This document shows positions 617 through 5,092 of a DNA stretch of 22,387 nt, piece by piece (the stretch's first letter is position 1; the number at the start of each line of letters is the position of its first letter). The translations under genes were made by a program, and so were the position numbers. This DNA is from a virus (lineage: Duplodnaviria > Heunggongvirae > Uroviricota > Caudoviricetes). Under the pieces are notes generated by a model that searched no databases, was not told where the DNA came from, and saw only the letters and a program-made list of their open reading frames with translations. Location of the stretch: positions 1-22,387 of IMG/VR virus record IMGVR_UViG_2698536657_000021; one strand, given 5' to 3'.

Positions 617-2599
617 TCATGCCGCGGCATCCGCGTTGTTCACTTCCACCTTCACACTGTCAATAAGCAGCGTATATGTCGCCGCCTTTGATATGCCTGT
701 CAGTTGCAGTTTGTCCGCCGACCCTGATGCCGGAGATTTCACCAGTGTGAACGGCGTACCCCGTTTCTCATCCAGTACCGGCGTCACCTGAATGCTGTTG
801 TTTCCGGCAAACTCAAAAGCCAGTGTGTGCCATCCGTTATCAAAGACCCCGAACGTATCCAGCTTCGCATTCTGCTTCTTGTGGTACATCGCGTTCAGGT
901 TCGTCGCATCCGTCTGCAGGAAGAAGGACATCAGCATGTCGTTGCCTTCCTCTGACAGCGTCACTCCCTCCGGCAGGGACGACAACTGCCAGTAAATACC
1001 CAGGGCAAACTGATTCGGCACCAGTGAGCCAGGCACCTTAAACCGCACGCTCACACGTCCGCCTTTCTTCAGCAACTCTGCTCCCTGCCCGGCTGCATCA
1101 TGCTCCAGAAACCAGATGTGGCTTTCCGGTTTGTTCAGTTGCAGGGCCTTACCACCGGTGGCACCCTCATCACTGACCACAGCCTCAGCGATGTTTTTAT
1201 TAACACTGTCTCCGCTCGCCGGTTTGTGATAATAGCGCCAGCCCTGTGATGCCAGGTCTTCACCGGACGCCAGCAGACTCATCAGGGTTCGGTTACTGAC
1301 CGGAGCTTCCGGCTCTCTCTCCGGGCCTTCACCGGAAGGTCCGGTGGGCTTCACCGTATCAGGCTGTTTTCCGGTAATGAATTCAGCGGTTCTCCCGGCG
1401 TGCAACAGAATCGCCGTTGCCAGACGGTCGGAAATAATCCCACGGCGAGCCCATGAACTGAAATGGCTTGCCCTGTCCACAGATGTCCAGGTCTTCTGGT
1501 CATTACGCCACTTTGAACCGTAATAACCGACGGTTTCCAGGTCCGGGTCTTCTGCCGGGTTATTGGTCTGCACATTCGCACCATTCTCATCCGTCATTAA
1601 CGGTACAAAGAAAATGTTCTGCGACTCCTTACCCTTATACCCTCCGTATACTGATGCATACCCTTCCGCATGACGCTGCTTCCAGAAATACGTTGTGTCC
1701 CCGCAAATCCACGGTACCGCTGATGCGCTGCCTCCTGTGCTCTGTGATGCCTGACCGGCAAGCTCCGTTCTGAACTGATTCACCATCGCACTAAACAGCC
1801 CCGGATGCTGCGCATGCGTCCCCACTGCCGCATCACCTTCTCCCTGCATCCACACCACCGCAAGCAGACGGTTTTTCGGGTTCTTCGCCAGTGCGGCTTT
1901 AGTCCGGCTCACCAAATCCTGATACAGCGGCTTACCCACACCCCAGCGCAGTGAATTTTCCGATGCACCGGCTGATTCGCTGTATGTGCCGTCTGCCCCC
2001 GTTGTGAATGCCGAAGCACCACGGCAGCACGGAACCAGCAGAATGCCCGCATTCGCCGGTATAAACGGCAGCAGTTTTTTGGCGATATGCAGCCCCTGCC
2101 CCACGGTTCCGTACTGCCCCTTTGACAGGTCCGCTTTCGGATGGTTAAGACGGCTCATGTCCTGCACATCATGCAGACAATGGTCCGCCGGAATAATGTC
2201 GTTATACTTACAGGCGGCACCGCCCGGTGTCACCGTACTGCGACGCGCCAGCTGCTTAATACGCGGGTCCGGACGGTCATATGTCTCCGGCAGCGGAAGG
2301 CCTTCACCATACGACATGCCGTTTGACTGCCCTGCCAGAACCACAACAAAGTAATACTCCGGGTCGCTGGTGGCGCTGATTACTGTGCCTTCTCCATCCG
2401 ACGGCTTCACCAACACAGGTGTGGTGACATCACCTTCCGCCGCAATGGCCTGCATCAGGGTATAAGGCGTGATGGCCACCGGGCTGCCAAATGGCTGCCA
2501 CCCCTCCTTCAGTTTTTGAGTCAGTCGCTCTGCAAGGTCTGACGGCGACGCCGCCCTGACCACATCGTAGTGTTTAAATGCCATGGTTCTTTCCACCAT
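617..2599 (-). CDS. nanS: prophage sialate O-acetylesterase NanS-p-like (DUF1737 N-terminal domain plus SGNH/SASA esterase domain)
   Basis: 660-aa track ORF. N-terminus MAFKHYDVVRAASPSDLAERL resembles DUF1737; VVVLAGQSNGMSYGEG is the SGNH-type esterase block I motif. Sits downstream of the phage tRNA cluster as in Stx-phage relatives. Alternative start ATG at 2584 (MAFKHYDV...) has a GGTGGAAAG context. Confidence 0.8.
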   Translation of the reverse strand: MVERTMAFKHYDVVRAASPSDLAERLTQKLKEGWQPFGSPVAITPYTLMQAIAAEGDVTTPVLVKPSDGEGTVISATSDPEYYFVVVLAGQSNGMSYGEGLPLPETYDRPDPRIKQLARRSTVTPGGAACKYNDIIPADHCLHDVQDMSRLNHPKADLSKGQYGTVGQGLHIAKKLLPFIPANAGILLVPCCRGASAFTTGADGTYSESAGASENSLRWGVGKPLYQDLVSRTKAALAKNPKNRLLAVVWMQGEGDAAVGTHAQHPGLFSAMVNQFRTELAGQASQSTGGSASAVPWICGDTTYFWKQRHAEGYASVYGGYKGKESQNIFFVPLMTDENGANVQTNNPAEDPDLETVGYYGSKWRNDQKTWTSVDRASHFSSWARRGIISDRLATAILLHAGRTAEFITGKQPDTVKPTGPSGEGPEREPEAPVSNRTLMSLLASGEDLASQGWRYYHKPASGDSVNKNIAEAVVSDEGATGGKALQLNKPESHIWFLEHDAAGQGAELLKKGGRVSVRFKVPGSLVPNQFALGIYWQLSSLPEGVTLSEEGNDMLMSFFLQTDATNLNAMYHKKQNAKLDTFGVFDNGWHTLAFEFAGNNSIQVTPVLDEKRGTPFTLVKSPASGSADKLQLTGISKAATYTLLIDSVKVEVNNADAAA

Positions 2600-2845
2600 A
2601 TTAAAAACAATTCTTTAAAATACCTGACATGCAATACAGAAAAAAAACACAAAACCATACCTTAAATGAAAACCTCATCATAAAGCAGGTATGCATGGAT
2701 AAACTACAAGACGGGATATAAAAAACCTGTATTTAAATAAACAATAAACAACATCAGAAAAATAATTCTGCTCTATGGTTTACATTCAAAATTATCATTT
2801 ATACTTTTCAGAACATCACCAGCACAGCATAAATAAGGGGGCTAA

Positions 2846-3181
2846 ATGAAGTGGATTGTGATTGATACAGTTACCCAGCCATCATGCGGAATATCTTTTT
2901 CAGCCATATGGAGTAAAATAAAATTAATAATCTGGTATCAATCGGATGTTTTCTTACCTCCTGAAAGTATATTTACGTTGACTCACACAGGTATCGTACT
3001 TAATAACAAAGTGCTACCTGTAACCATTTACAACGTTGTACCATTCAATAAAAGATTCTGGGATTTAATCAAAAACAGCCAGGAATGTCCTGCAAATTCA
3101 GATAACGTATTGAAAGAATGCTTTAATAATCATTGCATTCTGCAAATATGCCCTTACGGACTAAAACAACAGTGTCCATAA
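2846..3181 (+). CDS. hypothetical Cys-rich protein, 111 aa, in an AT-rich island
   Basis: ATG at 2846 with strong SD AAGGGGG 5 nt upstream; stop TAA 3179-3181. Low GC and divergent from nanS-p across a very AT-rich 245-bp intergenic region. Six Cys residues. No family recognised. Confidence 0.5.
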
Positions 3182-3204
3182 TTAGTTTACTCATATCTTA
3201 CAAA

Positions 3205-3236
3205 ATTCATATAAAAGCCCCTCCGGAGAGGGGCTA
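3205..3236 (-). terminator. GC-rich hairpin terminator, possibly bidirectional
   Basis: 8-bp perfect stem AGCCCCTC (3216-3223) / GAGGGGCT (3228-3235), loop CGGA. The minus strand has TTTTAT after the stem; the plus strand has only AAAG, so termination of the 2846..3181 gene would lack a U-run. Confidence 0.45.
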
Positions 3237-3482
3237 AAGCCGCGTATCTGTATCATCATGCGCATGATGCCGGGTGCCTCCCGGTGAGTTCAGCCCGGTG
3301 CCACCAAACCAGCGCGTTTACTTTCCTGGGTATCAAAGATAACACCTAATGCACCAGTCGCCCCTCCGCTCAGGGGGATTCACCATGCCTGTTTCTTTTA
3401 ACAAACTCCCCGCAAAACAGACAACTGTCAACCGTCTGAATTGTGAGACATTTAAAATTTTCGGGGCATGACTGATACCCGG

Positions 3483-3647
3483 CTAACTACCTGGCATGTC
3501 CTTTTTCACCAAAGGAAAAAGCACCACCACAATACCGACCACCAGCACTCCATCCGCCAGCACCGACATGATCCTGCTGGTGAAATCCACCATCACCACC
3601 AGAAACAGCAGGAGTGCCACAGCGGCCAGACGCAGTTTTACCGTCAC
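3483..3647 (-). CDS. small membrane peptide, 54 aa, two hydrophobic segments, translationally coupled to the upstream TerB-like gene
   Basis: Not in the ORF track (GTG start). GTG at 3647-3645 overlaps the TerB-like stop TGA (3646-3644) as GTGA; SD GGAGA 7 nt upstream; translation VTVKLRLAAVALLLFLVVMVDFTSRIMSVLADGVLVVGIVVVLFPLVKKDMPGS; stop TAG at 3485-3483. Confidence 0.4.
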   Translation of the reverse strand: MTVKLRLAAVALLLFLVVMVDFTSRIMSVLADGVLVVGIVVVLFPLVKKDMPGS

Positions 3648-4075
3648 AGGTGGTTCTCCAGTCGCAGGCCAAGAACACCAGCAATCTCTTCCAGAACCTT
3701 ACGCTCTTCCGGCTCAATTTCACCATCTGCTTCAGCAATAGCCACCGCCACATCCAGCACATCTTCCGCTTCACGCGTATCGTGTTTCACATCTTCAATT
3801 TCACGCAACGCCGCTCGACGACCAATTTTAAAGTTGGTGTCAAGCTGACCTGTGATCGTGGCACTGATGGCATTAATTTCTGACGTAAACGCGGACAACG
3901 CAGGCTGGTTACGTAATACCTGTTCGATCTTCGCTTTCTCTGAAGCCTCACATTCACCATCTGCATAGGCTACCAGGTAGGCAGCATTAATAACCGCCTG
4001 TGCCAGATCGCGTTTCTCAAACTTTTTAATTTCCGTTGCTGCTCTGCGGGTTTTCTTTTTGAAAATACCAAACAT
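3644..4075 (-). CDS. TerB-like (tellurite-resistance TerB domain) protein, 143 aa
   Basis: ATG at 4075-4073 with SD AAGGAA 8 nt upstream (the track's 4147 start is GTG with a poor N-terminal extension). Two-repeat architecture with YADGECEASEKAKIEQVL and AEADGEIEPEERKVLEEIAGVLGL, resembling the TerB ADG-x-E/D repeat fold. Confidence 0.65.
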   Translation of the reverse strand: MFGIFKKKTRRAATEIKKFEKRDLAQAVINAAYLVAYADGECEASEKAKIEQVLRNQPALSAFTSEINAISATITGQLDTNFKIGRRAALREIEDVKHDTREAEDVLDVAVAIAEADGEIEPEERKVLEEIAGVLGLRLENHL

Positions 4076-4204
4076 CGTGACGTTCCTTTGGGTGGGTGAG
4101 CCAACGCCCGGGAGCGATCTGCCCACAGAGAAAGTCACACTGACCACTCCGTAAGCTCACCCCCGAAAGGCTCTGTGGTTGATATGCGCCGGGCGTGGCG
4201 CGGA

Positions 4205-4230
4205 TACAAAAAAGGCCGCCAATAGCGACC
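4205..4230 (-). terminator. intrinsic terminator after the 69-aa ORF
   Basis: On the minus strand: GGUCGC-UAUUG-GCGGCC hairpin (6 bp including one G-U) followed by UUUUUUGUAU. Shares the core GATACAAAAAAGGCC with the terminator at 4802..4827. Confidence 0.5.
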
Positions 4231-4264
4231 TCAGTTACGGGATTATTCTGGGGTTAAACGACTG

Positions 4265-4474
4265 TTACTCCCCCCAGACAAAATCATCACTTCCTGTTCG
4301 ATGCGAGCCATAGTGAACCTCGTACTTATCTCCCGTCTTTCTTGCTTCCGTTTCTGCGTCTTCCTCTGTCGCAAAAACCCCAACAAGATGCCAGGGCGAG
4401 CTTCTTACCACAGCCCAACCTTTAACCCATCCTTTGTTGTCCTTATCTTCCATTAACACTTCAGAAACAAACAT
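4265..4474 (-). CDS. hypothetical small protein, 69 aa
   Basis: ATG at 4474 with SD GGAGA and a 5-nt spacer; track ORF; Trp-rich (MFVSEVLMEDKDNKGWVKGWAVV...). No family recognised. Confidence 0.5.
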   Translation of the reverse strand: MFVSEVLMEDKDNKGWVKGWAVVRSSPWHLVGVFATEEDAETEARKTGDKYEVHYGSHRTGSDDFVWGE

Positions 4475-4526
4475 ATTTATCTCCTTGTGGGTACCCAGAG
4501 ATATTTTATGATTGCTCCCGGTCAGA

Positions 4527-4751
4527 TCAATAAAGTGGCTTCAATTTTGCCTTAATGATCAAATCAGGGTGATTGACGGAATCGTACACCACCTCAATAT
4601 TTTCATCCGTGGCGTCGATAAGATATTCTTTTACATAAGGACCTGTTGATTTTCCATGAAATACATCTTCAACAAGTACACTCTCCCCCTGAACAACACG
4701 AAAACTAACTTCTGTTTCGAACGGACCAATCGTCACCATCAGTTTTTTCAC
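4527..4751 (-). CDS. hypothetical small protein, 74 aa
   Basis: GTG at 4751-4749 preceded by AGGAGG with a 4-nt spacer; track ORF (VKKLMVTIGPFETEVSF...). No family recognised. Confidence 0.5.
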   Translation of the reverse strand: MKKLMVTIGPFETEVSFRVVQGESVLVEDVFHGKSTGPYVKEYLIDATDENIEVVYDSVNHPDLIIKAKLKPLY

Positions 4752-4801
4752 ATAGCCTCCTGATAAGCACTCGATTTATTAGTTAATGGTGTAACGCTGA
4801 T

Positions 4802-4840: not shown

Positions 4841-4917
4841 TGGCGCGTTGTACTGGATTCGAACCAGTGACCGATTGCTTAGAAGGCAATTGCTCTGTCC
4901 GGCTGAGCTAACAACGC
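4841..4917 (-). tRNA. argO: tRNA-Arg (anticodon UCU)
   Basis: Manual cloverleaf fold of the reverse complement: perfect 7-bp acceptor stem GCGTTGT/ACAACGC, D-stem GCTC/GAGC, anticodon loop CTTCTAA, T-arm ACTGG-TTCGAAT-CCAGT, discriminator G, 3' CCA. Confidence 0.85.
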
Positions 4918-4930
4918 TGAATACCGATAA

Positions 4931-5007
4931 TGGACCGCCATCGAGGACTCGAACCCCGCGCAGCCAGCTTCGAAGGCTGACGCTCTGTCCCGATGAGCTA
5001 ATGGCGG
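4931..5007 (-). tRNA. argN: tRNA-Arg (anticodon UCG)
   Basis: Manual fold: acceptor CCGCCAT/ATGGCGG, D-stem GCTC/GAGC, anticodon loop CTTCGAA, T-loop TTCGAGT, 3' CCA. Confidence 0.8.
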
Positions 5008-5016
5008 TATGTGATA

Positions 5017-5092
5017 TGGTGGCCCTTGCTGGATTTGAACCAGCGACCTGGCGATTATGAGTCGCTCGCTCTCACCACTGAGCTAAAGGGCC
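5017..5092 (-). tRNA. ileZ: tRNA with CAU anticodon, ileX/ileZ-like (lysidine tRNA-Ile2 type), 76 nt
   Basis: Reverse complement GGCCCTTTAGCTCAGTGGTGAGAGCGAGCGACTCATAATCGCCAGGTCGCTGGTTCAAATCCAGCAAGGGCCACCA closely resembles E. coli ileX; anticodon loop CTCATAA. The Ile versus Met call is by that similarity only. Confidence 0.8.

Follow-up and report, generated by a model that had tools for sequence, protein, structure and literature searches.

An AT-rich island in a lambdoid prophage carries a variant copy of the anti-adaptor gene iraL

The window analysed here is a stretch of 22,387 nucleotides from a tailed virus (Caudoviricetes; IMG/VR record IMGVR_UViG_2698536657_000021, positions 1 to 22,387), in which an extremely AT-rich island lies next to nanS-p, a gene of the phage late operon. 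We find that this island is a variant copy of iraL, a known prophage-borne gene that is already annotated by the NCBI Prokaryotic Genome Annotation Pipeline (PGAP). The gene is carried by a cargo cassette of approximately 620 bp (about 2585-3204), which resides on a lambdoid prophage of the potB island type and not at the iraM locus of Escherichia coli K-12. We are confident that the cassette encodes an anti-adaptor that binds RssB and stabilizes the stress sigma factor RpoS (sigma-S), and that it is expressed in the prophage from a promoter of its own. The initial annotation of this DNA, made without database searches, had proposed a separately acquired gene and given it no name; homology searches identify it as iraL, of the IraM family.

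Identity and predicted action of the encoded protein

The iraL coding sequence (CDS; 2846..3181, plus strand) is an intact open reading frame (ORF) with an ATG start, divergent from nanS-p as initially described, and encodes a 111-aa RssB anti-adaptor of the IraM/IraL family. The protein matches the NCBIfam model NF007393 ('anti-adapter protein IraM') over residues 1-109 with 158.1 bits (curated cut-off, 121), phrog_4407 with 227 bits, and the IraM chain of PDB 8TWD over residues 1-78 (E = 3e-32). It is 89% identical to IraL of the uropathogenic E. coli strain CFT073 (c1429) and 62% identical to K-12 IraM. An hmmscan of the window protein against Pfam-A returned no family at E <= 0.1, including PmrD (PF11183), and the identity was settled by the NCBIfam and PDB sequence searches. 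Although this fresh search was negative, IraM-family database entries carry a precomputed PF11183 label; the assignment is marginal or dependent on the Pfam version.

Pairwise dN/dS is 0.38 when the ORF is compared with the common iraL allele and 0.18 in the comparison with iraM, which indicates a real gene under constraint (purifying selection). Given that intermediate database clusters exist at 76%, 73% and 68% identity, the IraM/IraL family resembles a continuum more than a pair of separate classes (iraL and iraM).

In CFT073, iraL sits on the potB island and is expressed in unstressed logarithmic phase; its product binds RssB in two-hybrid and pull-down assays and, during exponential growth, makes sigma-S both more abundant and more stable (Hryckowian et al., 2014, mBio, PMC4045071). 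The window gene resembles its CFT073 counterpart closely. Both encode proteins of 111 aa, share a homologous promoter and transcription start site (TSS) region with an identical -10 box, are AT-rich, and lie in the same slot between a DUF3927 gene plus STnc100, a small RNA (sRNA) gene, on one side and nanS-p/DUF1737 on the other, divergent from nanS-p. By analogy, we infer that the window allele also binds RssB and stabilizes RpoS. In the lysogen, iraL would be transcribed from its own sigma-70 promoter, starting at about 2813, and a strong Shine-Dalgarno (SD) sequence lies in its 33-nt leader. Judging from the two homologues with 89% and 62% identity, the 111-aa product would bind the response-regulator-like adaptor RssB, and would occlude its alpha4-beta5-alpha5 face together with the interdomain segmented helical linker. 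RssB blocked in this manner could not deliver sigma-S to ClpXP, so that RpoS would be stabilized, the lysogen would gain RpoS and the general stress response of the host would be raised; with the CFT073 allele, such stabilization sets in already during exponential growth.

Conservation of the binding surface is in line with this prediction. Fifteen IraM residues, comprising clusters I-III and Pro66, were counted as RssB contacts from the structural work on K-12 IraM (YcgW; PDB 8TWD; Brugger et al., 2023, PMC10844676). Eleven of them are identical in the window protein (I4, I6, W22, K26, I42, C14, F18, W30, I61, Y62 and P66), and conservative changes account for the remaining four (T13S, L75I, H63N and I64V). 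The protein is predicted to fold as the PmrD-like beta-barrel seen in IraM. A first AlphaFold run with 13 close homologues gave a mean predicted local distance difference test score (pLDDT) of 62.5, with the tail below 50; it was superseded by a run with a 45-sequence alignment, in which the C-terminal tail reached 72-78.

Several features set the window gene apart from K-12 iraM. The upstream DNA of the two genes is not alignable, and iraM adjoins e14, with no STnc100 found beside it at E <= 0.1, unlike window iraL. IraM is induced by magnesium starvation via PhoPQ, whereas IraL is active in logarithmic phase and has been reported to contact RssB differently from IraM (PMC4045071). Furthermore, the window protein extends four residues beyond the C-terminus of IraM. 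PmrD (PDB 4HN7 and 2RQX) is more distant still, with 14-18% identity, a different target (PmrA) and no four-cysteine tail, and represents a separate family at the sequence level.

Composition and left border of the cassette

The initial annotation described the DNA upstream of nanS-p as very AT-rich and the GC content of the divergent ORF as far below that of the neighbouring genes, and the measured values agree with both statements. Positions 2600-2845 contain 28.9% GC and the entire intergenic spacer (2585-2845) 29.9%; the ORF has 34.5% GC, with 33% at third codon positions (GC3), compared with 56.4% and a GC3 of 62% for nanS-p and with 49.7% for the whole 22-kb window. Among all 631-bp segments of the window (mean 49.7%, sd 4.2), the GC minimum coincides with the island (2585-3215, 31.5-31.7%; the minimum starts at 2586), which lies about 4.3 sd under the mean, and the lowest 631-bp value outside the island is 40.4%.

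The nanS-p gene (617..2584, minus strand), the divergent left neighbour of iraL, encodes a nanS-p-type sialate O-acetylesterase with DUF1737, SASA and DUF6645 domains, as judged from Pfam matches and the PGAP annotation of a near-identical prophage. In that prophage, which is 99.5% identical, PGAP places the start of nanS-p at the equivalent of window position 2584, not 2599. The AT-rich intergenic region noted at first is thus real, but it measures 261 bp instead of the 245 bp originally given.

Promoter, leader and upstream regulation

The AT-rich upstream regulatory region of iraL (2585..2812, plus strand), which runs from the nanS-p start codon to the iraL TSS, is 91-97% identical to the iraL upstream DNA of CFT073, ATCC 25922 and CFIAFB20190157. 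The suggestion that the ORF has its own promoter within this spacer is borne out by homology: the 5' end of the CFT073 iraL mRNA, mapped by 5' RACE (rapid amplification of cDNA ends) as ACATCACCAGCA... (PMC4045071), aligns to window position 2813, pointing to a TSS of the window allele at about this position and to a 33-nt leader. Upstream of it, the CFT073 TSS and the alignments place a core sigma-70-type promoter (2779..2805, plus strand), consisting of a -35-like TTTACA (2779-2784), a 15-nt spacer and the -10 box TATACT (2800-2805). A simple consensus promoter scan missed this site because the 15-nt spacer falls outside the scanned window of 16-18 nt. In CFT073, a fragment extending from -100 to +33 sufficed for complementation (PMC4045071). 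Between the window and CFT073, this fragment is 89.6% identical and the whole spacer 91.3%, with positions 2731-2812, the TSS motif and the -10 box nearly invariant; the core promoter is likewise nearly invariant between alleles with 7% CDS divergence.

The leader, at 78.8% identity to CFT073, has diverged more than any other part of the cassette. This 5' untranslated region (2813..2845, plus strand, 33 nt), to which the published 5' end ACATCACCAGCAAGGCATAAACAAGGAAACCA aligns, includes the strong SD sequence AAGGGGG (2835-2841) that had been pointed out initially. Written as TAAGGGGG, it is complementary to the anti-SD at 8 positions, one of which is a G.U pair, and ends 4 nt ahead of the ATG, which is slightly short. 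The predicted fold of the leader is no more stable than that of shuffled sequences (z = +0.5). The SD core is GGGGG in the window, GGAGG in CFIAFB20190157 and GGAAA in CFT073 and ATCC 25922; with this stronger SD, the clade of the window allele may translate the protein more efficiently.

The best PhoP-box-like match in the whole window is a direct repeat, TGTTTA-N5-TATTTA (2734..2750, minus strand; 11/12 positions), centred at about -71 from the TSS. It serves as a lead only. Its score is reached by no more than 2.7% of mononucleotide shuffles of the spacer. The repeat is unchanged in four iraL alleles and persists, as CGTTTA-N5-TGTTTA, in the Stx2a phage EH2201, whose allele is 73% identical, despite divergence of the surrounding upstream DNA. 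Given that the K-12 paralogue iraM is PhoPQ-induced (review, PMC10948607), we regard the repeat as a reasonable lead. As iraL is raised in a CFT073 fur mutant, the spacer was also searched for a Fur box; the best match (11/19) was reached by 96% of shuffles, and this candidate was rejected. The level of CFT073 iraL mRNA is 1.6 log2 higher at 37 C than at 23 C (PMC12890032). Such a rise is compatible with control by H-NS, without proving it. The paralogues iraM and iraD are reportedly under H-NS regulation, going by the title of a 2012 study by Battesti, and H-NS silencing of iraL appears plausible from its composition and the iraM precedent.

A convergent STnc100 gene and the right border

Downstream of the ORF, the initial annotation had noticed a GC hairpin as the only terminator candidate. 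The hairpin exists and, as stated, has no U-run on the plus strand, but its owner is a minus-strand gene that had gone unseen, namely an STnc100-family prophage sRNA gene (3205..3417, minus strand) convergent with iraL. The match to Rfam model RF02076 is full-length (model positions 1-206 of 206) and scores 131.5 bits against a gathering score of 47. The terminator of this gene is formed by the hairpin at 3216-3235 (GCCCCUCUCCGGAGGGGC), followed by UUUUAUAU, in agreement with the STnc100 consensus terminator. Its T-run (3206-3215) is present on the minus strand only (AGCCCCTCTCCGGAGGGGCT-TTTATATGAA), as is the match of a terminator scan. On the iraL strand, the hairpin folds stably (z = -3.9) but is followed by UAAAGCC.

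The iraL stop codon and the 3' end of the sRNA are separated by 23 nt, and we place the right border of the cassette near 3204 because the hairpin belongs to STnc100. A first alignment with the Stx1 phage BP-4795 had set this border near 3261, with the hairpin as part of the cassette; this option was rejected, since Rfam assigns the hairpin to the STnc100 terminator, of which BP-4795 carries a variant. STnc100 is a recognized prophage sRNA, related to PasD, that has been noted downstream of stx2. It adjoins iraL-type genes in ATCC 25922, CFIAFB20190157 and the Stx2a phage EH2201, and in BP-4795 it lies downstream of stxB1.

Distribution of the cassette and its cargo slot

The spacer and the ORF travel as one unit; of the 5426 complete E. 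coli genomes searched, 1429 contain it at 90-95% identity. The search yielded 1446 matching records, of which 1429 cover at least 80% of the cassette; relative to the window, 1435 genomes fall in the 90-95% band and 8 are at least 99% identical. In a spread sample of 40 of the matching records, all 40 rows are annotated as IraM anti-adapter. The closest matches to the window allele are isolates of Shiga toxin-producing E. coli (STEC), whereas iraL has been reported as rare or under-represented in enterohaemorrhagic E. coli (EHEC) and STEC (PMC4045071).

The cassette occupies the same position in the lambdoid late region of STEC1590, CFIAFB20190157, ATCC 25922 and CFT073 (potB prophage), downstream of the Q antiterminator gene, tRNA genes and a DUF3927 gene and divergent from nanS-p/DUF1737. 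The slot thus lies between STnc100 and nanS-p, and iraL points against phage late transcription. Other phages fill it differently. The flanks are matched by 335 phage records, only four of which contain the cassette. In BP-4795, for instance, some 200 bp of unrelated sequence lie between the homologous flanks instead, providing an empty-site alignment; at positions 4230-4289, BP-4795 encodes the anti-GcvB sRNA AgvB (RF02702, 56.6 bits, just over the gathering score of 56) in the same orientation as iraL. Stx2c and some Stx2a phages have in this slot an allele of the IraM family that is 73% identical to the window protein; it is placed directly between stx2B and yjhS, with STnc100 in between. 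This allele is found at positions 4001-4324 of EH2201 and in 41 other Stx2/Stx2c phage records, some of which have it annotated as iraM and many of which leave it unannotated.

These alignments show the island to be one cargo among several that alternate in a single hot slot, and this variable occupancy supports its reading as a moron. The initial proposal of a separately acquired moron is also upheld by the movement of the cassette as a unit, by its coincidence with the GC minimum and by its absence from related phages with homologous flanks. The cassette combines presence/absence polymorphism, a compositional break and, by homology, its own promoter; a terminator of its own is missing from this set. 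Like other late-region morons (stxAB, the AgvB/AsxR anti-sRNAs and those of the lom/bor type), it is a self-contained, compositionally distinct unit between genes of the late operon. Unlike them, it is oriented against late transcription and, with its own promoter, abuts the STnc100 terminator in place of one of its own.

Beyond STnc100, a TerB-family gene (PF05099) and a DUF3927/TciB-like gene (phrog_1470), located at 3483-4147 on the minus strand, occupy the position downstream of the tRNA genes at which Stx phages carry stxAB. Relative to the otherwise 95-98% identical STEC1590 prophage, the window has a 563-bp insertion (4232-4794, about 39% GC) between the tRNA genes and the TerB-family gene. 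The insertion holds two small minus-strand ORFs of unassigned function, 4265..4474 (phrog_4280) and 4527..4751 (partial phrog_2571), and looks like a second small cargo insert. Three phage tRNA genes follow at 4841-5092 (minus strand), namely Arg-TCT, Arg-TCG and one with a CAT anticodon. The latter was called Met by ARAGORN and Ile by PGAP in a near-identical prophage (presumably lysidine-modified Ile2).

A conserved cysteine tail

The window protein contains six cysteines (C14, C81, C92, C97, C102 and C110), as counted in the initial annotation, of which only C81, C92, C97 and C102 are features of the family; C14 is a threonine in most members, and C110 is specific to the window allele, where it arises from S110C, one of the 12 amino acid changes that separate the window protein from CFT073 IraL. 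After a profile search covering 1.84 billion representatives, 45 full-length members that are 20-88% identical to the query were aligned. Across these divergent proteins, C81 and C97 are present in 45 of 45, C92 and C102 in 44 of 45, W72 in 45 of 45 and P103 in 44 of 45, whereas most RssB-contact positions are variable. The four cysteines and the CPYG motif, with the Cys codons 81-102 at window positions 3086-3151, are thus the most conserved feature of the family. The window protein conforms to the signature W-x8-CP..-x8/9-C-x4/5-C-x4-CPYG, which we defined from the family alignment and not from the literature.

The IraM crystal structure was obtained with residues 1-78; residues 79-107, which were described as less conserved, flexible and proteolytically unstable, had been removed (PMC10844676). 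A literature search on cysteines or zinc in IraM/IraL found nothing relevant. We tentatively propose, as a possibility that falls somewhat short of probable, that C81, C92, C97 and C102 (CP-x9-C-x4-C-x4-CPYG) form a metal-binding (probably zinc) or redox-sensitive mini-domain essential to the stability or activity of the IraM/IraL family or, alternatively, that the prophage copies are under PhoP control via the repeat at 2734-2750. Such a putative four-cysteine mini-domain would have been overlooked because the only crystal structure was restricted to IraM residues 1-78 and the tail had been characterized as flexible and of lower conservation.

Weighing of the evidence and alternative explanations

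Several points weigh against the interpretation of the cassette as a source of RssB-binding, RpoS-stabilizing protein. All iraL copies considered in 2014 were at least 95% identical to CFT073 over the CDS at the nucleotide level and at least 96% identical over the promoter/upstream region (PMC4045071). The window CDS, at 313/336 positions (93.2%), lies outside this band, and the window sequence is a diverged allele within the iraL lineage and does not represent the canonical sequence type. In view of the 12 amino acid differences from CFT073 IraL, one of which is in the neighbourhood of a listed contact position, and of the diverged leader, the activity and expression level of the window allele could differ from those of CFT073 IraL. 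The RssB-contact residues are poorly conserved across the wider family, so that their conservation is meaningful among close Escherichia members only. Given the reported difference in binding mode, the IraM co-crystal may not match the IraL contacts exactly. Finally, iraL is without its own terminator.

This last property is relevant to the possibility that iraL mainly serves the phage, with raised RpoS tuning prophage induction or the late and toxin genes, and with mRNA that reads through the weak plus-strand side of the shared hairpin additionally acting antisense to STnc100 and the late transcript. The antisense orientation of iraL relative to the late operon and its convergence with STnc100, only 23 nt away and with no U-run on the iraL strand, would fit this scenario, as would the presence of the anti-sRNA gene agvB in the same slot of other phages and the location of IraM-family alleles directly beside stx2AB in Stx2 phages. 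However, conservation of the ORF is fully explained by the protein-level function known from its homologue, and RpoS stabilization in the host is compatible with an additional benefit to the phage; we therefore consider a phage-serving role unlikely as the explanation of the gene. Alternatively, the cassette could be a xenogeneically silenced, inert passenger that is kept by hitch-hiking with the prophage and from which in practice no protein is made. H-NS targets typically have a GC content as low as the 30-35% found here, H-NS is said to regulate the paralogues iraM and iraD, and the best matches of the window allele are in STEC despite the reported scarcity of iraL in EHEC/STEC. Yet the ORF is intact, with dN/dS of 0.18-0.38, the sampled records uniformly annotate it as an anti-adapter, the core promoter has hardly changed against 7% CDS divergence, and the SD is stronger than that of CFT073. 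Moreover, logarithmic-phase cells express the CFT073 allele, which has an effect on sigma-S and is upregulated both at 37 C and when fur is mutated. Altogether, an inert passenger seems quite improbable.

It is also conceivable that the protein does not affect RpoS proteolysis and works as a connector of the PmrD type, with a target among the response regulators that is not RssB; it might, for instance, shield phosphorylated PmrA or another regulator from dephosphorylation. This we consider very improbable: the 14-18% identity to PmrD contrasts with 62% to IraM and 89% to IraL, both of which have been shown to bind RssB and stabilize sigma-S, 11 of the 15 IraM-RssB contacts are identical, and no PmrD match in Pfam was obtained at E <= 0.1. 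An iraL cassette that encodes an RssB anti-adaptor remains the favoured reading.

Implications

Our analysis re-identifies a described gene with a known mechanism that is already annotated, a genuine acquired cargo but an ordinary one. Going slightly beyond the literature, it indicates that STEC prophages harbour a circulating allele of the iraL lineage that falls outside the definition of at least 95% identity and has a stronger ribosome-binding site, and that IraM-family genes, AgvB-type anti-sRNAs and the iraL cassette compete for one slot between STnc100 and nanS-p, which in toxin phages is directly beside stx. The analysis further shows that the four-cysteine tail discarded in structural work is the most conserved feature of the family. 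If the mini-domain hypothesis is correct, metal availability or the oxidation of thiols could feed into the activity of the anti-adaptors and, through it, into the stability of RpoS, and the tail may help to explain how anti-adaptors themselves are controlled. More generally, iraL is a horizontally acquired RpoS stabilizer that alters how the general stress response is set in pathogenic E. coli.
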